Shown one piece after another: positions 3,555 to 62,285 of a stretch of 64,000 nucleotides of DNA; position 1 is the first letter of the stretch; each line of letters begins with the position of its first letter. The stretch spans positions 35,549-99,548 of the forward strand of contig JBKHIT010000008.1 in the NCBI GenBank assembly GCA_046538485.1, written 5' to 3'. A program made the translations under genes and the position numbers. The notes beneath the pieces are model-generated. The model did not search any database. It worked only from the letters and a program-made list of their open reading frames with translations, and had not been told where the DNA came from. The stretch comes from Candidatus Brocadiia bacterium. GTDB lineage: Bacteria > Planctomycetota > Brocadiia > SM23-32.

Positions 3555-3619
3555 TGCTCAGGTACAGACTCCCCTCTCGTAATGTATATAAATGGGAAAA
3601 GCGTGTCCCCGGCTATCAG

Positions 3620-3874: not shown

Positions 3875-4142
3875 AGGAAAGTCCTTTCGTACGTTTATAA
3901 GAGATTTTCGCCCCCAACAAACCGTATCTTACACGAAACAAACGAGCTCTGCAAATTCTCGGGCTGCCTCAGACAAGCAGATCCCGCAGTGAGCAAACCG
4001 TTTAATCCTCCCGCTCGCCTCCTCCCTTATTCTCAGCCCCTGGCTCTATTCATGTCGGGTTTTGGATTTCTCACCGCTGCACTCGGACCGCCATATCAAA
4101 ACCGACGTCAGCCGAACGAAGCTCTTCGCCGTGAGCAAGAAC

Positions 4143-5054
4143 TTACGGATACGAACACGGATCGATGTATTTAAGATCGCCGTCCGGTTCAATCAAGGCA
4201 TGCGGGGCGACCAGCATTTCGTATTCCCCGGCGCACATCTTCGACTCATTGAAACCAACTTCTCCGCAGGCGATACCGATCACATGCATGTCCCACGCCA
4301 GAGCGTTGAAATGCCCCTGGTGACGGTAGAAGAGAAAGTGGTCGGAGTTGGGTGGGTGGGAGCGCCACTCGCCCCAGCGCCGGCTGGCGCCGGTCCCGCC
4401 TGCTCCGAGACCGTCGCGCATCAACAATACTTTGGAGGGATAATTCATTTCGGCAGTCAGGTAGTACCGCTCGCATCGGTATGCTCCGCCAGCCCCGTAC
4501 CAGCCCCACGTGTTCGGGTAATTGTTGTTGGTCTTAATGTTGCACCTGTAGTTGTAGAGCCCGCCCGAGGCAAGCCAGAACTTGTCGCTCGACGCATAGC
4601 TGGGGTGATTGGCAATGATAATATCAACTTCGTGCGGTACGTAGTTGTAGCAGGCATATTTCTTGCCCGATGGGGCGCACCACCCGGTATTGTCGGTGGT
4701 AAACCCGGCCGATGGACAATCCCATACACCGAGCGGCCTGGCCCACTGGGCATGCCAGGGATAACCGTTCGGCCAGTAGTCCGGCAAATACCCGTTCTTC
4801 GTCAGGGGACCGTAGGCACCGGTGCCGTAGGTAGGACCACCAAAATCATTCATGTACATCGTCTGCGCCAGCCCGAGCTGCCCCAGGTTGTTCTTGCAGG
4901 AAACGTCGCGGGCAGCGTCGCGCGCTCTTTCCAGCGCCGGCATCAACATAGCTGCCAGAATGGCGATAATCGCTATGACGACCAGAAGTTCTATCAAAGT
5001 GAACGCCGATTCTCTGTGACCGCCTGATTGCGTCACTACACACCCCCTTTTCAC
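4143..5054 (-). CDS. Prepilin-type N-terminal cleavage/methylation domain protein (DUF1559-like pseudopilin)
   Basis: ORF track, 303 aa. ...[52 protein letters not shown] is a prepilin signal plus hydrophobic helix. The rest is rich in Gly, Tyr, Trp and Asn. The first codon is GTG at 5054. An alternative GTG at 5036 lies 6 nt after AAAAGGGGG and would give a shorter leader. Confidence 0.8.
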
Positions 5055-5187: not shown

Positions 5188-5656
5188 AAAATTTGATATC
5201 GTAAAGGACGGGATTCCTCCGATCTCCTACAGTGATTGTTTGGTTTAACCAGTTCACGTGCGAGGAGCGAGGAATCCCGTGAAGGTAGTCTCCAGCGACC
5301 CGCCTCATAACGCCCTGATCGTAAGAGACCAAAACTCTGAGGATCCGAAGATAGATTAGATAACGCAGGACACATAGCGCGCCAGGCTCGGAAAGCGGGC
5401 AGGTGAATGCGACCGACCTGGGCCGGCGGTCAAGGCGGATCGGTGGGCGAAACTGGACTTGAGACGGGCAGTGCCTGCAAAAATGCCAGTGCGCGCGGAA
5501 ATCCCAACAAATCGACCCGCGTTCTGAACTCCAGTCCGCCCGCGGGGGGCTAATGGGGTGAAAAACCGTTTCTTTAGTCTAAACCGGCTCATCAACGGCT
5601 CTGAAATCCGGATTCTGGGGTAAAAACTTTTTCTGCCTACCGCTAAGTCCCGACTG
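5188..5656 (-). repeat. Two-module intergenic repeat, copy 1 (paired with 32033-32534)
   Basis: The reverse complement aligns with 32033-32534. The first 47 nt are identical (CAGTCGGGACTTAGCGGTAGGCAGAAAAAGTTTTTACCCCAGAATCC). Module I spans about 5440-5656 and module II about 5188-5292. The middle part is not similar between copies. Confidence 0.85.
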
Positions 5657-8588: not shown

Positions 8589-8637
8589 GACTGTTATTGT
8601 TGAAACGGCGTGTCATTTTTTCTGAAGGAGGCCAAAA

Positions 8638-9666
8638 ATGGCTAAAATGAAAGCCGCAGTATGTCACGAACCATTCGACCTCACCATCGAGGAGGTTGAC
8701 AAACCTGAGCCGGGCGAGAGCGAAGTCGTCGTGAAGGTAAAAGCTACAGGCGTCTGCGGATCGGATGTTGACGGCTATATCGGCAAACACCCCTGGATTG
8801 ACCTGCCCATGATACTCGGACACGAATGCAGCGGCGTTGTGGATACTGTCGGGCCGGATGTAACGAAATTTGAGCCCGGCGATCCCGTCGTGGTCGAGCC
8901 GTTTTTTGTCTGCGGTGAATGTCCGAATTGCCTCAAAGGCGACTACAACATGTGCCGGGATATCACGATTATCGGGCATCAGGTCGATGGCTCTTTTGCG
9001 GAGTATATCCTGATGACAGAAAGGTTTTTGCATCCTCTGCCCGAGGCGGTGAGTTTTGAGGTAGGGGCGCTGGCCGAACCAATAAGCGGGGCCCTCCATG
9101 GCGTCGGGCGATGTAACCTGAACATTGGTGACTTTGTCGTTGTCCTGGGCTGCGGAACGATCGGTTATTTTTTGGTCCAACATGCGGTTAACAGTGGGGC
9201 CAAAGTACTCGTCACGGAACCCGAAGATTACAAAAGAGAGGCCGCCCTGGCCGTCGGAGCCGAATGGGTTCTCGACCCCACATCCGAATCCGTCGAAGAT
9301 AAGGTAATGGAAATCAGCGACGGGATAGGTGCCGATTGTGTGATGGAAGCCGTTGGTATCCAGGAAACAATCGGAAAAACCGTCTCCCTGGCCCGCAAGG
9401 GAGGAACCATTCTGCTCATGGGCTGGACCGGCAATGAAACAGACGATTTCGACTGCACGAATATGACATTGGACGAAATGACCGTGCTCGGCACGATGGG
9501 ATTTGCTTTCGATTTCCCCGTTACGCTCGACCTTCTGGCGCGCGATAAAGTCGATGCCGAACGTATTATCACCCACCGTTTTCCTCTCGATGAAGCCGAG
9601 GAAGCCCTCGAAACGCTTCACGAAAAACGGGACAATGTCTGGAAAGCCGCCCTCATCTTCGATTGA
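8638..9666 (+). CDS. Zinc-dependent alcohol/polyol dehydrogenase (MDR family)
   Basis: ORF track, 342 aa. Shows ATGVCGSDV, GHECSGVV, a structural-zinc Cys cluster (CGECPNCLKGDYNMC) and GCGTIG NAD-binding motifs. Confidence 0.85.
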   Translation: MAKMKAAVCHEPFDLTIEEVDKPEPGESEVVVKVKATGVCGSDVDGYIGKHPWIDLPMILGHECSGVVDTVGPDVTKFEPGDPVVVEPFFVCGECPNCLKGDYNMCRDITIIGHQVDGSFAEYILMTERFLHPLPEAVSFEVGALAEPISGALHGVGRCNLNIGDFVVVLGCGTIGYFLVQHAVNSGAKVLVTEPEDYKREAALAVGAEWVLDPTSESVEDKVMEISDGIGADCVMEAVGIQETIGKTVSLARKGGTILLMGWTGNETDDFDCTNMTLDEMTVLGTMGFAFDFPVTLDLLARDKVDAERIITHRFPLDEAEEALETLHEKRDNVWKAALIFD

Positions 9667-11362: not shown

Positions 11363-12289
11363 CTACGGCGCTTCCTTCGGGCAGTAAAGATTAACGTACC
11401 GCATTTCGCTGTCCCTCTCCAGTATCAGATCGGCTCGTTCGCGGGTCGACGCGCACAATTCGTAATTGGGCCTGTCAACCCGCTCGAAATGTCGACGCGC
11501 ATCCTCAGGATCCCGGCCGCCGCGGATGTGCCGCTGGATGATCCTGGATTTGATTGCCTCAAAAGGGGTATCAAGAAAAAGCGACACATCAAGATAATCG
11601 GCCACAGAAGCCCATTCCTCACCCCCGAACAGCAAAAAATTGCCTTCCACAAGGGCAATCGAATGCTCCGGTCGGACGGGAACGCGGGAACGGACGGGTT
11701 CATGCAGCTCACGGTCGTAAGCGGGGACATCAATGGAATCCCCCTTCGAAACTTCTCGCAAAACATTTACGAACGACCGAACATCGAATGTTTCAGGCCT
11801 GCCCTTAAGTTCCTGCAGCCCGTGCTCGGCAAGCCATTCATTGGAACGATGAAATCCGTCTAATGACATCATAGCGACGGCATCATCTGAACCAAGCAAC
11901 ACATCGATAACGCGTTTGAGGAGTGAACAAAAAACAGATTTGCCTCCGCCCGGTGGGCCTGCAATCCCCACCAACCTGCGGCCCGGATTGGCGTCAATGT
12001 TGCACAAACCGAGAGCCAGAGGAAGAATAAAACGCCACATCTCAACACGGGTCGTTTTGCATTCGATCTCGCGCCCATCCACATCCATTCGGCACGATGG
12101 GCAGAACTTTTCAACGCGTGGGAAGCCGTCCAGCAGGCTTTTGTCCGATGGGGAAACGATGAGGGGCGCCCGGGCAAGCACTTTCAGTGTCCGCCGAAGG
12201 TTAATATCATTCAAAACTTTCGATTTGAGTTTCCCGGAAAGCTCACCTCCATCGGCCAGCATTTTCAGGCGAGACCCCAGCTGCGTCAT
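11363..12289 (-). CDS. P-loop nucleoside/nucleotide kinase family protein (uridine kinase / PRK-like)
   Basis: Track ORF 11363..12382, trimmed to ATG 12289 (MTQLGSRLK...) to avoid overlap with the upstream gene. Walker A is GIAGPPGGGKS and a DGFH motif follows. Confidence 0.65.
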   Translation of the reverse strand: MTQLGSRLKMLADGGELSGKLKSKVLNDINLRRTLKVLARAPLIVSPSDKSLLDGFPRVEKFCPSCRMDVDGREIECKTTRVEMWRFILPLALGLCNIDANPGRRLVGIAGPPGGGKSVFCSLLKRVIDVLLGSDDAVAMMSLDGFHRSNEWLAEHGLQELKGRPETFDVRSFVNVLREVSKGDSIDVPAYDRELHEPVRSRVPVRPEHSIALVEGNFLLFGGEEWASVADYLDVSLFLDTPFEAIKSRIIQRHIRGGRDPEDARRHFERVDRPNYELCASTRERADLILERDSEMRYVNLYCPKEAP

Positions 12290-35110: not shown

Positions 35111-35797
35111 TCAGTCGTCCCTCAATTCATCGGTAAAAACACACCAGGTTTGCACCGGACATTTCTCGCATTCGGGACTGGAGGGGTGACAAAGCTCCCT
35201 CCCATGTTCGATCATGTTCAGGTGAGCTGAATATTTGCGTTTATCGGGGACAAGCTCATCGAGCCGTTTGTGCGCTTTGATGCGGCTGCAATCCGCCGGG
35301 ATAAGGCGGAGCCTCTGCCCTACTCGAAGCACATGCGTGTCAACTACAAAAGTGGGTTTGCCAAATCCAAATAGCAAAGCAAGACGCGCAGTTTTCACCC
35401 CGATACCCTTAATCTGGGTGAGTTTTTTTTCCGCCTCTTCCGCCGAGAGGGGCTCCAAAAAATTCAACGAATACTCGCCCCGCTCTCCCAACCAGTCAAG
35501 TAGTTCTCCTATGGCAGCCGCTTTTTGATCGGCCAGCCCCCCACATTTGATAGCTTCTGCGATTTGAGGATTTGTTGCCCCGGCCATCTCCTCCCAAGAT
35601 CCATAAGAAACCTTTAACTCATTCCAGGCTCGACCGCTGTTAAGGTCACTGGTGTTTTGGGACAGGATGCCGTGGACGAGCACTTCCAGAGGATCAGAAT
35701 CAGCCCGTGAAGGGATCCCATAACTTTCTGCAAGAGCATCGAGAACTGGACCGATTTTTTCTTTCGGCTCCGAAAGTTGTGGGGTGGGGGATGGCAT
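35111..35797 (-). CDS. Endonuclease III-like HhH-GPD base-excision repair protein with 4Fe-4S cluster loop
   Basis: ORF track, 228 aa. HhH is LTQIKGIGVKTARLALLFGFG. VVDTHVLRV is present. The Cys cluster is CHPSSPECEKCPVQTWC. Confidence 0.8.
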   Translation of the reverse strand: MPSPTPQLSEPKEKIGPVLDALAESYGIPSRADSDPLEVLVHGILSQNTSDLNSGRAWNELKVSYGSWEEMAGATNPQIAEAIKCGGLADQKAAAIGELLDWLGERGEYSLNFLEPLSAEEAEKKLTQIKGIGVKTARLALLFGFGKPTFVVDTHVLRVGQRLRLIPADCSRIKAHKRLDELVPDKRKYSAHLNMIEHGRELCHPSSPECEKCPVQTWCVFTDELRDD

Positions 35798-53013: not shown

Positions 53014-54150
53014 ATGACGGAAAAGAATGCTGATTTGCCTGATCCACGAAAAGTGGCGCAGCAAGAGGCAGAACAAATCAAGAACGATTACGAATTCATT
53101 TTTGAAAAGAGTCTGAAACGGGCCATTGCCGACCGTCCATCGCTCGACCGAGAGCGTTTGTTCCGGGAACTGGTGGAGTTTCATCGGGAACGGATGAACA
53201 AAATCCCGCCCCGAGCGAAATACCCCGAGGCGGCTCCGTGGGTCGGGTACGTCATTGAACGTGACCGCGAGTTGCAGCGAATCTCGGGACTTTCCGACCG
53301 GGAAATGGCCCAGCTGCGGAGTCTCAATGACTACCTCCGGTTCAGGGGTTGGGGCAATCTTTGCCCTGTCAGCTCTGAAAAATGCCGGGTCGTTTATCTG
53401 CCCGACTCGGATCGGGGGGAATTTCATATAAAGAATGTCGATGACCCCCTCACGAACTGGGAACCGTCAGACGAGCCGCCCCCCTCACCCCGTTTTCCGG
53501 AACTCATGATGGATGGGGTGGGCGCGGGGCTTCATCTGGATGACGAGCCAGAGCAGATTTTTCCGCTTCCGATCCGGCAGATGTGCTCAAAACTCGCCGA
53601 AAATCTGCCGTCGGCCCTTGAGTTTCTACAACGATACTCACCGTTCTGGGGCGCGCAAAATCTGCTGCTGCACGACCGCCAGAAATGCAGCATCGCCATC
53701 GAAAAGACAAGCTATAATTTCATGGACGTTTATGAACCCGGCACATCCGGTGAGAGCCATATCAGCGGGATGGTCTGCCGGGAACCCAAAACCGAGCAAG
53801 GACGATACGTCGAACGAAAACGCAAAGAGTTCACCGAACGGATCGGACAGGATGAAGAGGGGCCCTGCGGAAAATTCTGGCAGGCGTGCGACCGCGCGGA
53901 ACAAATGCTGGCGGAATTGCTGTCGAAGGTAGATGTCACCATCGATGAAATACTGGAGCTTTTCACCACGACCTGGCCGGAAGGACTCAACAAAGCCGGC
54001 GCGGTTTTTCATCCGGATCAGCCCTACGCCTCATGGACACTGGTCACACACGCCCGGTTGCCGGATCAAGGAATGGTTTTACGCTGGCAGCGCAGCGCCG
54101 ATGGCGCGTATCCCGATAAACCGCAAGTGTTTGAATACCCGATGGGATAA
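53014..54150 (+). CDS. Hypothetical protein (378 aa); weak resemblance to Ntn-hydrolase / peptidase C45-type acyltransferases
   Basis: Track ORF 52993..54150 (TTG start), trimmed to ATG 53014. The only hint is ..EKCRVVYLPDSDRGEFHIKNVDDP.. (Cys followed by a beta-strand and an N-x-D block). Not verifiable here. Confidence 0.55.
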   Translation: MTEKNADLPDPRKVAQQEAEQIKNDYEFIFEKSLKRAIADRPSLDRERLFRELVEFHRERMNKIPPRAKYPEAAPWVGYVIERDRELQRISGLSDREMAQLRSLNDYLRFRGWGNLCPVSSEKCRVVYLPDSDRGEFHIKNVDDPLTNWEPSDEPPPSPRFPELMMDGVGAGLHLDDEPEQIFPLPIRQMCSKLAENLPSALEFLQRYSPFWGAQNLLLHDRQKCSIAIEKTSYNFMDVYEPGTSGESHISGMVCREPKTEQGRYVERKRKEFTERIGQDEEGPCGKFWQACDRAEQMLAELLSKVDVTIDEILELFTTTWPEGLNKAGAVFHPDQPYASWTLVTHARLPDQGMVLRWQRSADGAYPDKPQVFEYPMG

Positions 54151-54492
54151 CGGGTTTTTCTGCGGTTTGGACACAAAACAGACTACCGCACCCTGCAGTG
54201 GAAACCGACACTTTTCAGCCATTCCTTCTCACGGCCCGGCATCCGTTTCCCAATTTCAGACCCAGCTTACACGTATCCGAGATGCCCCTACATGTAGGGC
54301 GTGATCGCCGGGCGCGCCCTGCCGTATTGCCCCGAAACAAAAGACGGCGAACAACAAACGGCAGTTCCGCCTCAGTCCCCCCTACCGCGGAGACCTGCAG
54401 CTTTCTGATAATTCTCCTTTCCGGTCTGTCCCCCGTCCATTGGAACGGAAGACGGTCTTCGCACGCAGCGGCCGGTTTGCGGACGCGTTGTT

Positions 54493-57400
54493 TTACGGCT
54501 GAACTTCGATCTCCACGGGCTGGGTCGCATCGCGGACCTCCGGCTCGTAGTACTGATAGACTTCCGTCGGAGGCGTCTTGGCCTTAACGGGGTATTTGGC
54601 CCGCAGGTGATACGTGAACCGTACGGGTTCGTTGCCGACAATGCTCTCGAAATACAGGATCACCTGTCGACCGGTCAGGGAATATCGCTGAATCAAGCCC
54701 TGCTCTTTCAGGCGGTCAAAATCCTCCGTCATGACCTGAAAGCCCGGCGGAATGCCCAGATCAACAATTGTCATGCGGGCCACACCGCTCCGGTTGTAGC
54801 GGATCGTCGCCTCGCACGCTAATTTGTCGTCCGGACGCAACTTCGTGGTATCGTACGCTACATCGATGCTCATGGTCTTCTGGGTGGTCGGGGTTTTTCT
54901 CTCCCAGGGGAGGTAATGGGTGGCGACGATCTGGTAGGCAAAATTCGCTTCCCCGGCCGGTTCCAGAGATATCCGGTTGGGTCCGGGTTTCTGGTGTTCG
55001 CGCAGGCTGATCAGCCGGAAAACATCGCTGGTCTCCGGCGTGATGGTCAGTTCTCTGGCGAATTTTCCGTTGACCGAGATCGTGATCGGGAGGTCTTGTT
55101 TCAGTTCGGTTGCGGGCCCGGTGCCAGCAAGGAGGGCGCGCATCGCGTGTACAGTAGCCTGGGTGGAATGCCACGTGCCGGCTGAATCTTTCTCCTCGAT
55201 GAGCCAGGCCAGAGCTCTGTGCGCCGTGCCGAGATGAGATTGAGCTTTCAACATCGCGTATGCGGCCAGGGCCGTGGTTTCAATGTTCAGGACATTGCCC
55301 CGGGAGTGGGTCACACCCTCCGATTTGGAACTCCAGTGCGCAAGGTCTCCGTCCTCCTTTTTCGTGGCGTCAAGCATCTTAATTAAATCCCCGGCGCCGG
55401 ATCGCTCGCCCGCGACGAGCGCATTGGCGCAGACGGCAAGCGTGTAAGCGTCTTCGTCGCTCGATACGTTCTGTTCGACGTAGTCGAGGGCACGTGAAAG
55501 GTTGGAGTCTACGTTTCCCGACTCCGCCAGAGCCCATGCGATGTAGGCGGTTGTTCGGAGGACGGCGCCCTGGTAGGCGTTGATGGCACCTTCCTGGATG
55601 CCCCCCTGGGTCGGTTCCCATGAGCCATTGCGTTTTTGCTGCGAGAACAACCACCGGCGCGTTCGCTGTATGACGGCGGGATCGACCTCATAAACTTTCG
55701 CCATGTCGTTGAATTCCATCAGACCGTACGCTGTCAGAACGCTGTGGGCGGGCGCGTTTCCGAACCATTCGAATCCGCCCCCGCTGACTTCGTAGGAGAG
55801 CAGACGCTGGTAACCGAGGTTGATGTAATTGAGCGCTTTCATCTCGATTTCGGGCCTGGATTGATCCGTGCGGCGCATGTAGTCGAGCGCCAGAATGTTG
55901 GGGTATGTCACTGAAGACGTCTGTTCGAAACAGCCAAACGGTTTGCGGAAGATGCTGTCCAGTCCTTCCATCACCTGGCTGAAGGCGCCGGGATAGATTT
56001 TCACCAGCAGGTCGGAGGCGCCATCGATGGCCCGATCGGGAATCACGACCGTGCGGTTCAGTTTGCCGGTGAGGCGCCCGTTATCCGTCTGGACGATCTC
56101 TTTGCCGTCGGGTCGGACGCGGACCTTACGCCGGATCGCGTCGGCCATCTCGGATCCGAAAGCGCGAACGGTGAGGGTGTGGCGGCCGGGTTTGAGCGCG
56201 CGCAGTTTCATCGGGATACTCGTAACTTCCCGGGGACCGATTTCGAGCCGGCGTTCGGTCTCCCCGAGCATCTCGCACCAATCCGCATCGTCGACTTCCA
56301 GCCGGATCAGCTGGGTTTCGTCGAGATAGTTGTAGAGGGCGATCGGGACGCTGATTTCGTCGTGTTGGGTGAGGGCGACCGGGAAATCAATATCCACAAA
56401 GAAATCCTGAAACACCCGCAGCCCGAAGGTCTCCGCGCCCAATCTTCCCTGTCTCGAGACCGCGCTCATACTGATCCGCCAGGTGGTGATGGAATCGGCG
56501 AGCGGGACTTCCAGTTGAGCCCGGCCGGCCTCATCGGTAATAAGTTCCGGTTTCCAGAGAAGTGTTTCCGGGAAATAGTGTCGGACGCGGCTGGGGGCTT
56601 TCAAACTTTCATCTGCAGCCTTTTTGCGCCCCTTTGCGGCTCCGCGAACAGGGCTTCCATCAAGCGCTTCAGTCATCTCCGCAAACTTCTGGCGTGCGGC
56701 CATCCGGGCGGGAGACAGTGCCGGGAGGAGCAACCCGGCGAAGACGAGGAGCGCGAGAACGGGCAAGGCACCGCTGCGAACGGCTATCCAGACCGCGCGT
56801 TTTGTTGAAAGTTTCTGGCAGACAGAGTGTCCCGCAATTGACAGCGCGGGCAGCGCCGCAAACCAGAGACCGATCATAATCCCCGCTTCCAGCACAATTG
56901 TTTCTTCCGCCAGGCCCAACTCAGCTTCGGCGATTGCAAGGGTTAGGATCGATACGCTGGCTGCAATATAGGCGAAAGGCAAAAGCGTGGCGAATTTACG
57001 GAAAAGCGGCAGGTTGCTGACTCCGGGGCCCTTCCGGAATTTGAAAACCTTGGCTATGAGGGCTATCAACATGCCGATCCAGGCAATCACCCCAAAACTA
57101 CCGCTAAAAAGTTCGCCGTGGTAGCGCGCAAAAGCATTCTCGATAATTAGTTCATCAATAAGCAATCCCACGATGAGTGCTGTGACGGGAATAACCAGTG
57201 CCAACAACCAGCTTGCTGTCAGCCACCAGCATGCCCGTCGGAGTCGGTTCATCTCTTTTGCATTTAGCTCCGGCACCGGACGTCGTCTGAACAGTTTGTA
57301 AAGGCCGTAACCGACCATGGGCAGCACAAACAAGACATACAGTGCAAACGGGACCTGTGCGGCCAGTTTCAGGACAGCCCTGCGGTAGTTCACTTTCACT

Positions 57401-59670
57401 TTTCGAAATCGTCTCTGTTTTTCCTCAAATGAAATGCTCTGCGCTTTCCTCGGTGTGGCCGTTCCCTCGGCGGCGGAGAACAGCGCAACCCGGGCTTCTT
57501 TCAGTTGTGGTTCCGATTCCCCACGCGGCTCAATGGCCTCTTCAGCCGTCAGCGGCATATGGCCGTGAATCTCATAGGAAGGTTTGAGTATCTCTTCCTG
57601 AAGCGTGAAATAGACCCGTTCGAGTCCCGGGCGCATTTCCTGGAGAGCGAACACGGCCTCGTCCACTCCGGCCAGGCCCAGCGCCGCCTGTGTTGGTTTT
57701 CCTTCGGTCCCGGTTACCATGAACGTCAAGGTTGCGTTTTCCCCCGGACGGTACGTTTTTTTGTCCATTTTGGTCTCGATCGAGATCTGATCGGGTCGGT
57801 TGACCTGGACCACTTTTGCGTCGCTCACGATATTACCGTCGGGCAGGATGCGATACGCGTGGAGTTCGAGTGTTCCGAACAGGTCGGGCGGTAGATCGAG
57901 TGCAACGGATCCGCGCCCTTTCTCGATATCAAGGGCTTTGCTTAACATCGTCCGGCTGTTTTTCACGACATCCACGAAAACCCGGGCCCGTCGGTCGCCG
58001 GAGAGGACGGATACCTCAGCCGTTTCCCCCGCTTTATAAACGGCTTTGTCAGTGCGGAGGAGAAAAGCGTGGACCCGCTGATCGACGCGGAGAGGTCGGC
58101 TGACTTTCACCCGGCGCCCTCCGTTGTCTTCGGCTTCGATCGTGAGTTTCATGCGGGGGGACCGGGGGGTGATTTTGACTTTGGCGAGTCCATTCTCCGC
58201 GGTGCGTGTTCTGCGGCGATCAGCACCGATGATCAGTTCGGTCTGTGCCGGTCGGCCGTCGGGATATGACGTCACGATGTAGAGGATGTTTTCGACGCCC
58301 TGGACGAGTCTGCCGCTTTCCGGGAGCACGGCCACGCGTATCGGGCGGGTTGTGACGGTCAGTTCTTCAGTAATTTCCTGGGTATGACCGGCGGTATCGG
58401 TCACTTTAGCTTTGAGAGAAACCGTGGCATCTCCCTTTTTGCGGGCGGTGCCGGTGAAATGGCGTTTCAGAGGAAGCTGGAACGAAAAATGCCCTTCAGC
58501 GTTGGTTTTGCCCTCGGCACTGGCGAACTGACGGAACTTTTCCACAAACTCCGAGGCTGTGATCTGCACCTCCGCGTTCCGAACGGGTTTCCCGAATGTG
58601 TAGCGAGCGGTTATTTCGCCGATGAGCATTTCGCCGGGCCGGTAGAACGTTTTTCCGCAGCTTATGGTGGCCTTGAACTTCGGCAAACGATAACGTTTGA
58701 CCGTCACCGTGCGTTCCGATGTGGTGTCGCCGACATGGGCGGAGATGGTGTAGCGACCGGTGTTGACCTGATCGGCGAGCTGGAAATCGGCGGCCGCGAT
58801 CCCGTATTGGGAGGTTTTCAGCGTCTTTTTAAAGACCTTGTTGCCTTTAGCGTCTTTGACTTCGATCGTTGCCGGCTGGTCGGCGACGGGGTGGAGGTCG
58901 CTGGTGAAAAGCGACAGGGTCCGCATATGAATCGTCTGCCCGGGCTGGTAGAGCGGTTTATCGCTGCTGATCATTACCCGGAAAGACCGTTCGATGGTGA
59001 TGGTGCGGGAGACGACGTTTTTCCCCGCGGCTGATTTTGCGCGCACCCGGAGGGTATAATCGCCTTCCGATAGGTCCTCGGCCAGTTCTGGCTCAACCCG
59101 GGCGTTGCCGTGTTTGTCCGTTTTTGTTGTGCCTTCCCATATCTGTTTCCCACCGGGGTCCACCAGTGCGGCGGATACTTTCGCGTTAGGGACGGGTTTT
59201 GATTTTTTGCCGTCACGCACGAAAAGCCGAAACGACGCGATCTGTCCCGGTGTGACCGCCCAGCGTCCGTAGACCATAGTTTCCTGTGGTTTCGCGTGAC
59301 GCGTGGCGATGTGGCGGTCGATTCCGAGTAAGCCGATGGTTATCAGCGCGATGGCGGCGGCGGCGATTTTCCAGAACCGTTTGCTTCCCAGCCAATCTGC
59401 CTTCGGTTCGACGGGTTCAGAAGCCATGGTTTGACCCTCCATTCCTTTCTTTTGCGTCTGCGCCGCTTTTATGGTCCTTTCGGCCAGATCTTCGGGAGGA
59501 GGAGGTGCATCCCATTCCCGCAGAGCTTCCTTCTGGCGGCGTATCTTGTCCCGTGCCTGCCGGCATTCGCGGCAGATTTGCAGGTGTTTTTCTACCTGCT
59601 CTCTTTCATCTCCATCGAGCAGATCGAAGACCAGGTCATAGAGTTTTTGCTGGACTTCTTCGCACTTCAT
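54493..59670 (-). CDS. Anti-sigma factor (zf-HC2 type) fused to a full-length thioester alpha-2-macroglobulin with a 6-TM insertion (1725 aa)
   Basis: ORF track. aa 1-38 are MKCEEVQQKLYDLVFDLLDGDEREQVEKHLQICRECRQ (H29-x3-C33-x2-C36). A TM helix spans aa ~99-117. MG-type repeats include SDKPLYQPGQTIHMRTL, TDKAVYKAGETAEVSV and MDKKTYRPGENATLTF..GVDEAVFAL. Six hydrophobic helices span aa ~766-985. The A2M block is RHYFPETLLWKPELITD..SITTWRISMSAV (Y at aa 1032). The thioester block is FRKPFGCFEQTSSVTYPNILALDYM (C1247). The C-terminus is MG8/receptor-domain-like. It starts 16 nt after the ECF sigma gene. Confidence 0.85.
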   Translation of the reverse strand: MKCEEVQQKLYDLVFDLLDGDEREQVEKHLQICRECRQARDKIRRQKEALREWDAPPPPEDLAERTIKAAQTQKKGMEGQTMASEPVEPKADWLGSKRFWKIAAAAIALITIGLLGIDRHIATRHAKPQETMVYGRWAVTPGQIASFRLFVRDGKKSKPVPNAKVSAALVDPGGKQIWEGTTKTDKHGNARVEPELAEDLSEGDYTLRVRAKSAAGKNVVSRTITIERSFRVMISSDKPLYQPGQTIHMRTLSLFTSDLHPVADQPATIEVKDAKGNKVFKKTLKTSQYGIAAADFQLADQVNTGRYTISAHVGDTTSERTVTVKRYRLPKFKATISCGKTFYRPGEMLIGEITARYTFGKPVRNAEVQITASEFVEKFRQFASAEGKTNAEGHFSFQLPLKRHFTGTARKKGDATVSLKAKVTDTAGHTQEITEELTVTTRPIRVAVLPESGRLVQGVENILYIVTSYPDGRPAQTELIIGADRRRTRTAENGLAKVKITPRSPRMKLTIEAEDNGGRRVKVSRPLRVDQRVHAFLLRTDKAVYKAGETAEVSVLSGDRRARVFVDVVKNSRTMLSKALDIEKGRGSVALDLPPDLFGTLELHAYRILPDGNIVSDAKVVQVNRPDQISIETKMDKKTYRPGENATLTFMVTGTEGKPTQAALGLAGVDEAVFALQEMRPGLERVYFTLQEEILKPSYEIHGHMPLTAEEAIEPRGESEPQLKEARVALFSAAEGTATPRKAQSISFEEKQRRFRKVKVNYRRAVLKLAAQVPFALYVLFVLPMVGYGLYKLFRRRPVPELNAKEMNRLRRACWWLTASWLLALVIPVTALIVGLLIDELIIENAFARYHGELFSGSFGVIAWIGMLIALIAKVFKFRKGPGVSNLPLFRKFATLLPFAYIAASVSILTLAIAEAELGLAEETIVLEAGIMIGLWFAALPALSIAGHSVCQKLSTKRAVWIAVRSGALPVLALLVFAGLLLPALSPARMAARQKFAEMTEALDGSPVRGAAKGRKKAADESLKAPSRVRHYFPETLLWKPELITDEAGRAQLEVPLADSITTWRISMSAVSRQGRLGAETFGLRVFQDFFVDIDFPVALTQHDEISVPIALYNYLDETQLIRLEVDDADWCEMLGETERRLEIGPREVTSIPMKLRALKPGRHTLTVRAFGSEMADAIRRKVRVRPDGKEIVQTDNGRLTGKLNRTVVIPDRAIDGASDLLVKIYPGAFSQVMEGLDSIFRKPFGCFEQTSSVTYPNILALDYMRRTDQSRPEIEMKALNYINLGYQRLLSYEVSGGGFEWFGNAPAHSVLTAYGLMEFNDMAKVYEVDPAVIQRTRRWLFSQQKRNGSWEPTQGGIQEGAINAYQGAVLRTTAYIAWALAESGNVDSNLSRALDYVEQNVSSDEDAYTLAVCANALVAGERSGAGDLIKMLDATKKEDGDLAHWSSKSEGVTHSRGNVLNIETTALAAYAMLKAQSHLGTAHRALAWLIEEKDSAGTWHSTQATVHAMRALLAGTGPATELKQDLPITISVNGKFARELTITPETSDVFRLISLREHQKPGPNRISLEPAGEANFAYQIVATHYLPWERKTPTTQKTMSIDVAYDTTKLRPDDKLACEATIRYNRSGVARMTIVDLGIPPGFQVMTEDFDRLKEQGLIQRYSLTGRQVILYFESIVGNEPVRFTYHLRAKYPVKAKTPPTEVYQYYEPEVRDATQPVEIEVQP

Positions 59671-59686
59671 ATATTTTCACTTTCGG

Positions 59687-60304
59687 TTACTGGTTTTGAG
59701 AGACGTCATGAGCTTCGGCGATATCTTCCAGCTGTTTGCGGAGTTTCTGAAGGGCCAACCGCATTCTGGATTTGACGGTTCCCGGAGGTATCTGAACAGT
59801 ATCGGCAATTTCGGCGTAGGTCATCTCGTGGTAAATCTTGAGGATGAATACCTCTTTCTGTTCGGCGGGGAGTTCGCTGACGGCCTCCTCAATTCGTTCC
59901 CCAATTTCCTGGCACTCTATTCGGTGCGGAGGTGAGGGGTCAGATGAGCGGGGTTCCGGAGAACCGTTGAGCGGACGTGAATCTCTGCTTCCTTTTTTGC
60001 GCCAGTGCGAGCGACAGAGGTTCGTCGCGATTGTGTAGAGCCAGGTTTTGAACGAACTGTTTCCCCGGAAAGATTCGGCCTTCTGGAAGACCCGCATAAA
60101 CGTTTCCTGAAAAAGATCCGCCGCGACGGTGCGGTTTCCCGTCAGTTTGTAGAGCAGACCATGGAGTGGTTTTTCATACCGCCTTACCATCGTCTCAAAC
60201 ATGGTCATATCGCCCTCTATAAAGCCAAAAAGAAGGTCTTTGTCGCTTAACTCCGTACGATCCCCGCGATAAGAGCGACTCTGCGGTGCGGGGGTCGATT
60301 CCAT
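59687..60304 (-). CDS. ECF (extracytoplasmic function) RNA polymerase sigma-70 family factor
   Basis: ORF track, 205 aa. Region 2 is LYKLTGNRTVAADLFQETFMRVFQKAESFRGNSSFKTWLYTIATNLC. Region 4 is EVFILKIYHEMTYAEIADTVQIPPGTVKSRMRLALQKLR. RBS AGGAGA lies upstream of the ATG. Confidence 0.9.
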   Translation of the reverse strand: MESTPAPQSRSYRGDRTELSDKDLLFGFIEGDMTMFETMVRRYEKPLHGLLYKLTGNRTVAADLFQETFMRVFQKAESFRGNSSFKTWLYTIATNLCRSHWRKKGSRDSRPLNGSPEPRSSDPSPPHRIECQEIGERIEEAVSELPAEQKEVFILKIYHEMTYAEIADTVQIPPGTVKSRMRLALQKLRKQLEDIAEAHDVSQNQ

Positions 60305-60546
60305 TTGTGTCTCCTGTTAAGCGTAGACGCATGGGCGTCCCGAATTGATCACCAAAAAATGCCAAAAAAACAAAAAAACAGCTCCGACGGTCAATTCGGG
60401 GTGTGCATGATAACTTCTCGGTGGTGGGAACGACAATCAAAACAGCACCGATGGCGGGGAGATAAGGGGAAGAGACGGAAGGGGCATAAGGCACGTCAGG
60501 GACTCATCGGAGTGGAGCTTTGTTTCCGCGGTAGCGGAGATCTTAA

Positions 60547-60883
60547 CCCGCTTTTCTCAAGCGGCGCCAGTGCTGCAGCTGCGCGGAAGGCAAAGGCGGG
60601 TGTATTCTTATACCTCAACTGCAGCCTGATAGAGCAGAGAGGCAGAGCCTCTTTCACCAATGTGAAAATTGTGGCGGACTCCCTGTAACTATTGGCAGCT
60701 TCTGGTAGTTTATCGTCGGAGAAACCGCCAACTGGCGGCTGGCGCCGCTCCCGCAGGGCGAACCGCCACCTTTCGACTCAGGTTAGCCACTGTGTACCGA
60801 GATCAGTTGCGAAATATAGTGCAAAGTTTTTCTGTGCCGCCGTTTATAATAATTATATCTTTAGGTTCGGTAGAAATGCGGGG
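60547..60883 (+). mobile_element. MITE-like non-autonomous element, copy F3 (337 bp)
   Basis: Same terminal repeats as F1: CCCGCTTTTCTCAAG ... CGGTAGAAATGCGGGG. It is abutted by ..CTTAA| and |TAAC... It has an internal insertion of about 90 bp relative to F1. It sits between the ECF sigma gene's upstream region and the 3' end of the aminotransferase gene. Confidence 0.75.
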
Positions 60884-60908
60884 TAACAGTCGAGGCGGAC
60901 GCGCCCGT

Positions 60909-62285
60909 TCAGACCGCGGGAACTGCCTCGTCGGCGGCTTCGGCAAGCACTGCCAGGCTCTCCTGCAATGCATCTTCTGTGATGCAGAGAGGGGGCGCTA
61001 TTTTGACGCACTCGCCTCCGACACCGACCGGTGCGAACATGAGAAGACCTTTCTGGAAACACTTCTCGTTGATTTTGAGTGCCAGCTCGGAGTTCGGGGT
61101 TTTCGAGCCCGGTTCCACCATCTGGAGTCCCGCGACCAGCCCCCGTGCCTGAATGCACCCGACGTGATCCGGATGCCGCGTCTGGATTTCTTCGAGTCCT
61201 TTTCGAAGGATCGGTCCGAGTGTGGCGGCATTTTCGATGAGGTTCTCATCTTCCAGCGCTTCAATTCCTGCCAGAGCAGCGGCACAACAGACGGGATTGC
61301 CGGAGTGAGTTGAGGTCATTGACCCCGGCGCGTACTGGTCCATGAGTTCAGCGGTCCCAAGAACGGCGGAGACCGGAAGAGAACTCGATACGCCTTTTCC
61401 GCAGCAGATCAGATCCGGCACGATATCGTAGTGCTCGAAACAAAACATCTTGCCCGTCCTGCCAAAACCGCTCTGCACTTCGTCCATGATGAGCACGGCT
61501 TCATGCTGATCGCACCACTCTCGAAGAGATTGCGCATAGGGCGCGGGTAGAAAATCGGGGCCCACGCCCTGGTAACTCTCCGTCATGACGCCGGCCACAT
61601 CGTCCGGATCGACGCCCTGTTCCGCCAGAGATTCTTCGAAAAGCTCGAAATGCCTATCCTCGGTCTTGAATCCATCGGGAAAGGGTACCTGGACAAATCC
61701 GACGTCGGTGCGCACGATCCAATCTTTAAGTTTTTCCATCCCGCCGGCGAGCTGCGCGCCGAGAGTTCGACCGTGGAACGCGTTTTCAAAAGTGACAATG
61801 ACATGTTTCTGTTCTCCGGCCATCCGAACGCCATGGGTACGGGCGAGTTTGATGGCACATTCGGTGGCCTCGCTGCCTGTGGACAGGATAAAAGCTTTTT
61901 CGATCGCCTCGGGAGCCATATCCACAAGTTTCTCGGCCAGGTCGGCCCGGGTTTCATGGGGAAATACATAGGTGGCGAGCAAAGGTCTGTCGTTCAAATC
62001 GCGGATAGCTTTCTGGATGCGTGGGTGGCCGTGGCCGGCGTTGCTTACCAGAACGCAGCTCGACCAGTCGATCCAGCGGTTGCCCCAGCGATCTTCCACA
62101 TTGAAACCTTCGGCCCGATGCCAGATTATCGGCGGCTGCCCCTGCATGGATCGTGGTTCGACGCGCCGCAGTTTTTCCAGAATCGGGACGGATTCCGGCA
62201 CGGGCAAAGGCGTTTGGATCCGTCGATATTCGGTGTCAATTTCAGGGACATCAACCGGTTCGAGACTGTATTTTCCACCGCTCAT
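60909..62285 (-). CDS. Class III pyridoxal-phosphate-dependent aminotransferase
   Basis: ORF track, 458 aa. VSNAGHGHP, DEVQSGFGRTGKMF and the PLP-lysine region CCGKGVSS are characteristic. Confidence 0.85.
   Translation of the reverse strand: MSGGKYSLEPVDVPEIDTEYRRIQTPLPVPESVPILEKLRRVEPRSMQGQPPIIWHRAEGFNVEDRWGNRWIDWSSCVLVSNAGHGHPRIQKAIRDLNDRPLLATYVFPHETRADLAEKLVDMAPEAIEKAFILSTGSEATECAIKLARTHGVRMAGEQKHVIVTFENAFHGRTLGAQLAGGMEKLKDWIVRTDVGFVQVPFPDGFKTEDRHFELFEESLAEQGVDPDDVAGVMTESYQGVGPDFLPAPYAQSLREWCDQHEAVLIMDEVQSGFGRTGKMFCFEHYDIVPDLICCGKGVSSSLPVSAVLGTAELMDQYAPGSMTSTHSGNPVCCAAALAGIEALEDENLIENAATLGPILRKGLEEIQTRHPDHVGCIQARGLVAGLQMVEPGSKTPNSELALKINEKCFQKGLLMFAPVGVGGECVKIAPPLCITEDALQESLAVLAEAADEAVPAV

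Follow-up and report, generated by a model that had tools for sequence, protein, structure and literature searches.

The alpha-2-macroglobulin (A2M) family, which includes A2M itself, complement C3/C4/C5, the TEPs and the bacterial protein ECAM, is a classic proteolysis-triggered conformational machine. To our knowledge, all described members are soluble, lipid-anchored or glycosylphosphatidylinositol (GPI)-anchored. Here we analyse a 64,000-nucleotide (nt) stretch from a Candidatus Brocadiia bacterium (Planctomycetota; GCA_046538485.1, contig JBKHIT010000008.1, forward-strand positions 35,549 to 99,548; hereafter the window, with positions counted from its first letter) and, within it, a gene for an A2M-family protein (hereafter the query) that carries six hydrophobic helices inside its A2M body and an anti-sigma domain at its N-terminus. 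Our sequence and model analyses show a predicted membrane-integral A2M with both halves in the periplasm, an intact thioester motif, a preserved trigger and a flexible linker. On balance we think it probable that this is an animal-type thioester A2M held in the cytoplasmic membrane at two points, an N-terminal transmembrane (TM) helix (TM1) and the six-helix bundle; the bundle would act as a staple, trigger and trap would be kept, and a sigma factor would be released.

In the A2ML1 structure, LNK and the bait region form one continuous insert in domain MG6, and in complement proteins an anaphylatoxin domain stands in for the bait (PMC9156758). After cleavage of A2ML1 the BR-C segment, with its conserved Arg730 and Phe733, withdraws from a channel and sets off the conformational change (PMC9156758). 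The bacterial proteins ECAM/YfhM (E. coli) and SaA2M (Salmonella) have been described as thioester-bearing protease traps tethered to the inner membrane on its periplasmic side, and proposed as guards of the periplasm (PMC4498604).

The query gene is an uninterrupted open reading frame of 1725 amino acids (aa). The six hydrophobic stretches named in the original prediction are all present, at aa 773-985 (nt 57354..56716); the span first given for them, 56716-57375, corresponds to aa 766-985 and encloses the helices, which themselves begin at 57354. Both flanking landmarks exist as well, with a shift in numbering: GLAGVDEAVFALQEM lies at aa 665-679 and not at about aa 690, and RHYFPETLLW occupies aa 1030-1039. 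The gene and its membrane segments are as follows (helix calls from Kyte-Doolittle (KD) hydropathy and AlphaFold2 (AF2); directions predicted).

54493..59670, minus strand: whole gene, 1725 aa; anti-sigma domain, TM1, A2M N-terminal half, six-helix bundle, A2M C-terminal half
59317..59376, minus strand: TM1, aa 99-118, cytoplasm to periplasm; KD peak 2.07
57358..57429, minus strand: basic amphipathic helix, aa 748-771, before the first TM helix of the insert, predicted on the periplasmic face; AF2 helix
57289..57354, minus strand: insert helix a, aa 773-794, periplasm to cytoplasm; KD and AF2
57157..57231, minus strand: insert helix b, aa 814-838, cytoplasm to periplasm; KD and AF2
57043..57111, minus strand: insert helix c, aa 854-876, periplasm to cytoplasm; KD and AF2
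56929..56994, minus strand: insert helix d, aa 893-914, cytoplasm to periplasm, with motif PL[LF]RK ahead of it; KD, conservation and AF2
56830..56898, minus strand: insert helix e, aa 925-947, periplasm to cytoplasm; KD and AF2
56716..56793, minus strand: insert helix f, aa 960-985, cytoplasm to periplasm; KD and AF2

Averaged over 19 residues, KD hydropathy peaks at 1.8-2.5 for the six segments and the N-terminal anchor and rises above 1.6 nowhere else in the protein. A second hydropathy scale picks five of the six segments and leaves the Pro/Gly-rich helix a marginal. Shuffling of the whole protein gave at most six peaks against the seven observed; since this control for chance is weak, conservation across homologues is the stronger argument. 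The loops of the query alternate in charge as originally claimed, with 8, 5 and 4 Lys+Arg in loops 1-2, 3-4 and 5-6 and 1 and 0 in loops 2-3 and 4-5, and the same alternation holds across homologues (means of 6.0, 5.3 and 3.6 vs. 1.0 and 1.1). A total of seven TM helices, the anchor plus six, is supported by hydropathy and AF2.

The topology is read from hydropathy, charge bias and AF2. Given a cytoplasmic anti-sigma domain and an outward-running TM1, the N-terminal half of the macroglobulin (MG) ring would be periplasmic, and after six crossings the C-terminal half would be periplasmic again: an even number of helices in the insert returns the chain to the periplasm and would set both halves of the ring, together with the thioester and receptor-binding domains, on the periplasmic face. 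The proposal that both A2M halves face the periplasm is thus borne out, insofar as helix number and the positive-inside charge pattern can predict it; an odd number of helices, which had been foreseen as placing the C-terminal half in the cytoplasm, is not what the query has.

An AF2 model of aa 680-1035, built from a 93-sequence alignment, has a mean predicted local distance difference test (pLDDT) score of 84.6, exceeding 90 through the bundle, and its six long helices coincide with the hydrophobic stretches. The model runs helix f on to aa ~1004 (a 19-residue extension), as a single continuous 49-residue helix. Directly ahead of helix a stands the basic helix FEEKQRRFRKVKVNYRRAVLKLAA (aa 748-771), with six Lys/Arg in its last 15 residues (family mean 3.1 Lys+Arg in the 15 residues ahead of the bundle); it may rest against the surface of the membrane.

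More than 1300 relatives came up in a full-length search, and we used the best 120 (41-95% identical overall, 1640-1860 aa), which come from metagenome-assembled genomes (MAGs) of Planctomycetota, Verrucomicrobiota, Kiritimatiellia and Acidobacteriota. Exactly six hydrophobic peaks lie between VDEAVFAL and FPET in 109 of the 119 homologues scored; five have eight and one has two. The question of whether the insert is conserved or specific to one lineage is answered by its spread over several phyla: search and genome scan found the bundle in Planctomycetota, Verrucomicrobiota, Kiritimatiellia, Acidobacteriota, Chloroflexota (including Anaerolineae), Myxococcota and Vulcanimicrobiota, and over 100 independent assemblies, of several sources, show the same architecture. 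In the bundle, homologues share 22% identity with the query, vs. 51-71% in the A2M domains. The well-conserved residues of the bundle are prolines and loop Arg/Lys only, and polar residues within the helices are all less than 60% conserved. The best-conserved motif of the insert, R.RR...S...PL[LF]RK....LP.AY, is in the cytoplasmic loop before helix d (query NLPLFRKF, aa ~888-892, region 56881-56910); across 27 diverse inserts, its Pro and Arg show at least 90% conservation.

Alignment to known structures puts the bundle inside the LNK/bait insert of MG6, in the slot of the complement anaphylatoxin domain. Around it the chain is laid out as follows.

57430..57633, minus strand: LNK-like segment, aa 680-747, conserved family-wide (RPGLE..YF.LQEEILKPRYE.H ... 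VVLFSAAEG)
56593..56715, minus strand: post-bundle linker, aa 986-1026, probable bait/scissile region; variable in length and sequence, predicted disordered
56551..56592, minus strand: BR-C/Nt-alpha'-like trigger motif SRVRHYFPETLLWK, aa 1027-1040, with R1030 and F1033; invariance in 93 sequences, alignment to C3b alpha' and A2M

Against human A2M (6tav, precursor numbering), query aa 676 aligns with residue 607 and aa 1026 with residue 728; in UniProt the bait region of human A2M is 690-728. The trigger motif aligns to RSEFPESWLW of the C3b alpha' chain and to VRKYFPETWIW of A2M, and the R, F, P and E of RxxFPET are invariant in 93 sequences. Because R1030 in RHYFPETLLW is aligned with C3b alpha' chain residue 16, the C3 convertase site, 15 residues before RSEFPESWLW, maps to aa ~1015, within the linker. 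That linker has 19% identity and many gap columns in the homologue alignment, and pLDDT falls below 50 at aa 983-1020 in a second AF2 model, of aa 527-1725. The LNK role of aa 680-747 is assigned by position from the description of A2ML1, and the role of the trigger motif is taken from the same source (PMC9156758).

These data refine what was first said of the insertion point. The insert was placed exactly at the bait position; the slot is right, by alignment to A2M and C3b, but within it the bundle corresponds in position either to the anaphylatoxin domain or to the N-terminal portion of the bait. The further suggestion that a membrane domain has replaced the bait does not hold, because a disordered, hypervariable linker and the trigger (R1030, F1033) are kept after helix f.

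The remainder of the A2M body is built of the following parts.

57634..59283, minus strand: MG1 to MG6, the N-terminal half, predicted periplasmic, aa ~130-679, ending VDEAVFALQEM; Pfam MG2, MG3 and A2M_BRD (538-676)
56296..56565, minus strand: Pfam A2M domain, aa 1036-1125, the C-terminal half of MG6 plus MG7; PF00207, E 2.2e-20
55132..55986, minus strand: thioester domain (TED_complement), aa 1229-1513; PF07678, E 8.9e-49
55921-55935, minus strand: thioester motif GCFEQ, aa 1246-1250, invariant in 93 sequences
54532..54780, minus strand: receptor-binding/MG8 domain (A2M_recep), aa 1631-1713; PF07677, E 6.9e-16

The query is a clear member of the A2M superfamily, and we did not find its membrane-threaded, anti-sigma-fused design in the literature searched, to which alone this statement refers. 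Judged by sequence and model, it has the order MG6, LNK/bait, MG7, a CxEQ thioester domain (TED), an MG8/receptor-binding domain (RBD) and an RxxFPE trigger after a flexible region, as in the A2M/complement/TEP superfamily. No NCBIfam model covers the A2M body, the only match being 'antisigma' at aa 12-137, and public annotations of relatives read 'MG2 domain-containing protein', 'YfaS' or 'hypothetical'. By sequence comparison the query is far closer to the animal A2M family than to ECAM/SaA2M: E-values against the PDB are 6.5e-68 for A2ML1, 8.9e-67 for CD109, ~1e-63 for A2M, ~5e-49 for C3, ~6e-46 for TEP1 and 3e-8 to 1e-7 for ECAM and SaA2M (4u48/5a42). The AF2 model of aa 527-1725 (pLDDT 82.9) has beta-sandwich domains on either side of the insert, and its predicted fold is nearest to native forms (TMq 0.42-0.46 to native A2ML1, CD109, A2M, C5 and TEP1 vs. 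0.29-0.36 to activated forms).

With animal A2ML1, CD109, A2M and TEP1 the query has in common the domain order (MG1-6, LNK/bait slot, MG7, CUB/TED with CxEQ, MG8/RBD) and the Arg and Phe of BR-C; those proteins are secreted or GPI-anchored, whereas the query, a bacterial protein, is predicted to be integral to the membrane with seven TM helices and carries a bundle between LNK and bait as well as a cytoplasmic anti-sigma domain. Complement C3/C4/C5 hold the anaphylatoxin domain, a small helical bundle, in the slot that holds the bundle of the query; the module of the query is membrane-embedded and ~3x larger, no homology between the two was detected by Foldseek against the PDB or by Pfam, and the query has neither a furin-type processing site nor a C345C domain. 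ECAM and SaA2M are likewise periplasm-facing, membrane-tethered thioester A2Ms, and their fold is related to that of the query (Foldseek E ~2e-32, TMq 0.38); they have an N-terminal lipid anchor, a soluble-loop bait, often a gene beside pbpC, and no anti-sigma domain, whereas the query is TM-anchored, has no lipoprotein N-terminus and has no pbpC or penicillin-binding protein (PBP) gene nearby.

The N-terminus of the query and the gene upstream of it link the protein to an extracytoplasmic function (ECF) sigma factor.

59687..60304, minus strand: ECF sigma factor gene, 205 aa; Pfam Sigma70_r2 and Sigma70_r4_2; NCBIfam TIGR02937 sigma70-ECF 117.8 bits vs. cut-off 42.9
59560..59664, minus strand: zf-HC2 anti-sigma domain, aa 3-37, HxxxCxxC, predicted cytoplasmic; Pfam PF13490, E 2.2e-8, 34.4 bits vs. 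cut-off 22.2

The sigma gene is co-oriented and stops 16 nt upstream of the start of the A2M gene; NCBIfam 'antisigma' NF052375 matches aa 12-137 (E 7.7e-12), under its cut-off. The locus has the features of class I zf-HC2 anti-sigma factors: an N-terminal HxxxCxxC domain, then a TM helix, and an adjoining co-oriented ECF sigma gene. It resembles single-pass anti-sigma factors of the RsiW/RseA type in all of these and in the possession of an extracytoplasmic sensor; it differs from them in that the sensor is a complete 1600-aa thioester A2M, and in six further predicted membrane crossings. An ECF sigma gene lies directly upstream in all five long-N-terminus members examined (the query, P0017, P0083, P0030 and P0110; the arrangement is seen in loci L001, L003, L085 and L088), among them members in which Pfam misses zf-HC2. 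It is absent in both of the two members that have only a ~20-residue anchor (P0043, P0070), and six-helix loci of Anaerolineae, Acidobacteriota and Myxococcota lack any sigma gene. The first TM helix begins beyond residue 35 in 96 of 116 complete close homologues. Anti-sigma fusion is typical of the query clade, and the bundle exists without it. In L085, the Verrucomicrobia locus of P0030, the sigma/A2M pair is flanked by a gene for a Reprolysin-like metalloprotease immediately upstream and by a second ECF sigma gene immediately downstream (nt 1432-2094 and 8625-9329); this is a single case.

We propose, as a tentative and rather doubtful extension, that the query clade has a new type of ECF anti-sigma factor with a thioester-A2M sensor: capture of a protease would be relayed through the seven-TM scaffold, or by follow-on proteolysis, to free the sigma factor, and the bundle would make this coupling possible. 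The signalling bundle of the original suggestion, in which the six helices and TM1 form a seven-TM device that relays the rearrangement to the anti-sigma domain and frees the sigma factor without or before regulated proteolysis, we consider unlikely. In favour of such a device are the well-packed AF2 bundle with its high pLDDT, the location of the best-conserved insert residues in a cytoplasmic loop (R.RR...S...PLLRK), the tight linkage to sigma genes in every long-N-terminus member examined, and the N-terminal extension of at least 35 aa in most complete close homologues. However, P0043 and P0070 have the same bundle with a PLLRK-type motif, and the motif is present in members without an anti-sigma domain; the loci of Anaerolineae, Acidobacteriota and Myxococcota without a sigma gene have the bundle too; and neither the low conservation of the bundle nor its variable helix number (described below) would be expected of a tuned transducer. 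Signalling from the bundle to the anti-sigma domain is possible in the query clade, but as the reason for the bundle the originally suggested coupling does not stand, because it is common for six-helix members to have a short anchor and to lack a sigma gene (P0043, P0070, Anaerolineae loci). As the bundle exists without a long N-terminus, it is most likely a membrane staple.

The slot itself is a hot spot for module exchange. A genome scan yielded TM-less sister proteins, from Armatimonadota, WOR-3, Pirellulales, Hydrogenedentota and Cloacimonadota, with 44-50% identity over the C-terminal 1200 aa. All four that were tested have a Pfam T2SSG (PF08334, GspG pseudopilin) match in the slot, at 36.7 (L015), 26.6 (L059), 23.8 (L021) and 18.3 (L034) bits against a cut-off of 21. 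These sisters have the same LNK motifs, an RVRxFPET trigger and a variable linker as in the query; they differ in the soluble T2SSG module and in having no anti-sigma domain and no upstream sigma gene. L018 and L053 are grouped with them. L065, L072 and L051 have an added CarboxypepD_reg-like domain (Pfam match checked in L065 only), and L070 has a soluble insert of ~550 aa. Among membrane inserts, P0008, P0024, P0058 and P0079 have 8 peaks, L080 has 10, P0115/L011 has 11-13, and P0069, L057 and L061 have 2. Helix number in the slot is thus variable between lineages (2, 6, 8, 10, ~12-13) and even wherever the count is clear, which fits the need for both A2M halves to be on the same side of the membrane. 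In profile-profile comparison, inserts of genome-scan relatives match the query type with 86% and 94% probability (reversed controls 2.8% and 0.8%), which suggests by sequence a shared origin, although the aligned region is partly the shared pre-bundle helix. Our neighbour-joining tree is crude and midpoint-rooted, and we therefore take no firm view on whether the TM or the GspG form is ancestral.

In three distant six-TM relatives (L044, L049 and L064) the last insert helix and the helix next to it match positions 2-51 of GspG TIGR01710 with E 2.8e-7 to 3.9e-5, below whole-protein cut-offs. An example of this pilin-like pair is GSRLLEVLAVIAIIVVLAAMLLPSLAAAKKKAQKVSLANELKQ, from the group of these three loci with L080 and L057; L049 and L064 have G-S-R-[LV]-[LI]-E, in which Gly(-1) and Glu(+5) form the prepilin peptidase pattern. 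Helix f of the query shows a faint pilin-like trace, LLLPALSPARMAARQ. A pseudopilin-derived module would give the bundle a different role: prepilin peptidase would cut before a GspG-type helix f on the cytoplasmic side and produce a two-chain A2M like C3 beta/alpha, whose C-terminal chain, on a pilin-like helix, could be handled by a type II secretion or type IV pilus machine. The GspG and other pilin matches of L044, L049 and L064 speak for it, as do T2SSG matches above the cut-off in TM-less sisters and the length of query helix f in AF2, which is that of a pilin alpha-1 helix. We nevertheless regard it as quite improbable for the query: helix f has no pilin match at E up to 1 in NCBIfam or Pfam, the Gly(-1)/Glu(+5) pattern is missing from the query and is not kept across its clade, the flanking ~10 kb on each side showed neither pilin machinery nor a prepilin peptidase gene, and the resemblance may reflect ancestry only. 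Pseudopilin ancestry of query helix f is a lead, not a result.

It is very improbable that the bundle is an autonomous membrane protein, for example a transporter, a channel, or a rhomboid-like protease or other intramembrane enzyme, fused into an A2M. Six TM helices are a common core number, and helix c of the query opens with FSGSFG, while a His follows helix e; against this, neither the Ser nor the His is conserved, and searches for a described relative found none. Pfam on nine diverse inserts gave scattered, inconsistent matches below cut-off, NCBIfam on the inserts likewise only scattered sub-cut-off matches, and Foldseek found no fold relative of the bundle model in the PDB (best E 0.66, TM-scores mostly <0.25). 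A profile of 27 inserts run against 1.84 billion representative proteins had 74 matches: every full-length one is an A2M of ~1600-1800 aa, matched at aa ~660-1030, and no homologue was clearly free-standing, the short matches being mostly recognisable A2M fragments. A word-index search with the insert only (aa 680-1029) had no match, probably owing to a limit of the index for hydrophobic queries, given the >1300 relatives that the full-length query retrieved. The absence of conserved polar or catalytic residues, of a family or fold match, and of full-length matches other than A2Ms argues for a staple rather than an enzyme. A rhomboid-like protease was considered in particular and rejected, since its topology is a misfit and FSGSFG and the His are not conserved. 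An artefact in which assembly or a frameshift has fused two genes, or a soluble protein with a hydrophobic helical domain buried in its interior, is hardly credible: helix a is marginal on one scale, but the frame is intact, the architecture recurs across independent assemblies, and strong KD peaks occur six times together with alternating basic loops.

We thus return to the two-point-anchored, stapled trap, for which a sequence of events can be proposed. Most likely the bundle would serve as a structural staple and tie the hinge of the trap to the membrane. A protease entering the periplasm would cleave the post-bundle linker, as expected from the family at large; as in A2ML1 and C3, retraction of the trigger segment would follow, the A2M body would rearrange, and the Cys1247-Gln1250 thioester would capture the protease covalently on a membrane-bound trap. 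In the query clade the A2M gene would be co-transcribed with the ECF sigma gene, and periplasmic cleavage or rearrangement would probably destabilise the anti-sigma factor and free the sigma factor, making the protein a combined protease trap and sensor; this last step is the least certain.

Several points weigh against this account. All support for it is sequence- or model-based. Odd helix counts (5, 7, 13) occur in a few homologues, depending on the threshold, and a strongly basic pre-bundle helix placed in the periplasm is in mild conflict with the positive-inside rule. The PL[LF]RK motif and the high AF2 confidence suggest a defined and possibly functional bundle rather than a passive anchor, and the closeness of the linker to the membrane might limit its accessibility to proteases. 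No protease, site-1 or site-2 protease gene is linked to the A2M gene in the window, so the step from cleavage to sigma release is without direct support.

The slot between LNK and bait accepts very different modules (an anaphylatoxin, a pseudopilin domain, 2 to ~12 TM helices), and this widespread bacterial clade offers a natural system with a membrane-fixed trigger. The fusion to an anti-sigma domain next to an ECF sigma gene suggests direct sensing of attacking proteases by bacteria; the literature searched contains no description of this A2M architecture, no link of macroglobulins with ECF or anti-sigma factors, and no description of protease attack as an input to ECF signalling. If the reading of the protein as an A2M-sensor anti-sigma factor is true, one molecule would both neutralise and report proteolytic attack. 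The closeness of the query to animal A2Ms also bears on the exchange of A2Ms between animals and bacteria, for which horizontal transfer has been proposed.

Other genes within ~10 kb (PcRGLX-like, aminotransferase, GFO/IDH oxidoreductase, Obg, BNR and M29 peptidase) are unrelated to the A2M gene, and none of them shows a conserved link to it in the other loci examined. A promoter and terminator scan of 54100-61000 found sites no more frequent than in shuffled sequence.

A separate observation concerns seven A2M homologues in related loci outside the window, from MAGs of Anaerolineae, other Chloroflexota and Planctomycetota, in which the codon of the thioester cysteine is TGA (G-TGA-FEQ), at the following positions.

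L010: TGA codon, 3617-3619
L012: TGA codon, 4102-4104
L055: TGA codon, 12035-12037
L060: TGA codon, 12101-12103
L066: TGA codon, 4518-4520
L070: TGA codon, 5446-5448
L083: TGA codon, 3973-3975

Selenocysteine probably replaces the thioester Cys in these relatives, as judged from their sequences; the literature searched holds no link between selenoproteins and macroglobulins. The frame stays open for ~480 codons past the TGA, and in five of the seven a conserved hairpin, GTACGTC-GGN-GACGTAC, begins 10 nt after it, at about the position of a bacterial selenocysteine insertion sequence (SECIS); predicted folding energies are not distinctive. Three database proteins of the query clade, P0124, P0125 and P0131, end in '...PGG', as if gene callers had stopped at such a TGA.

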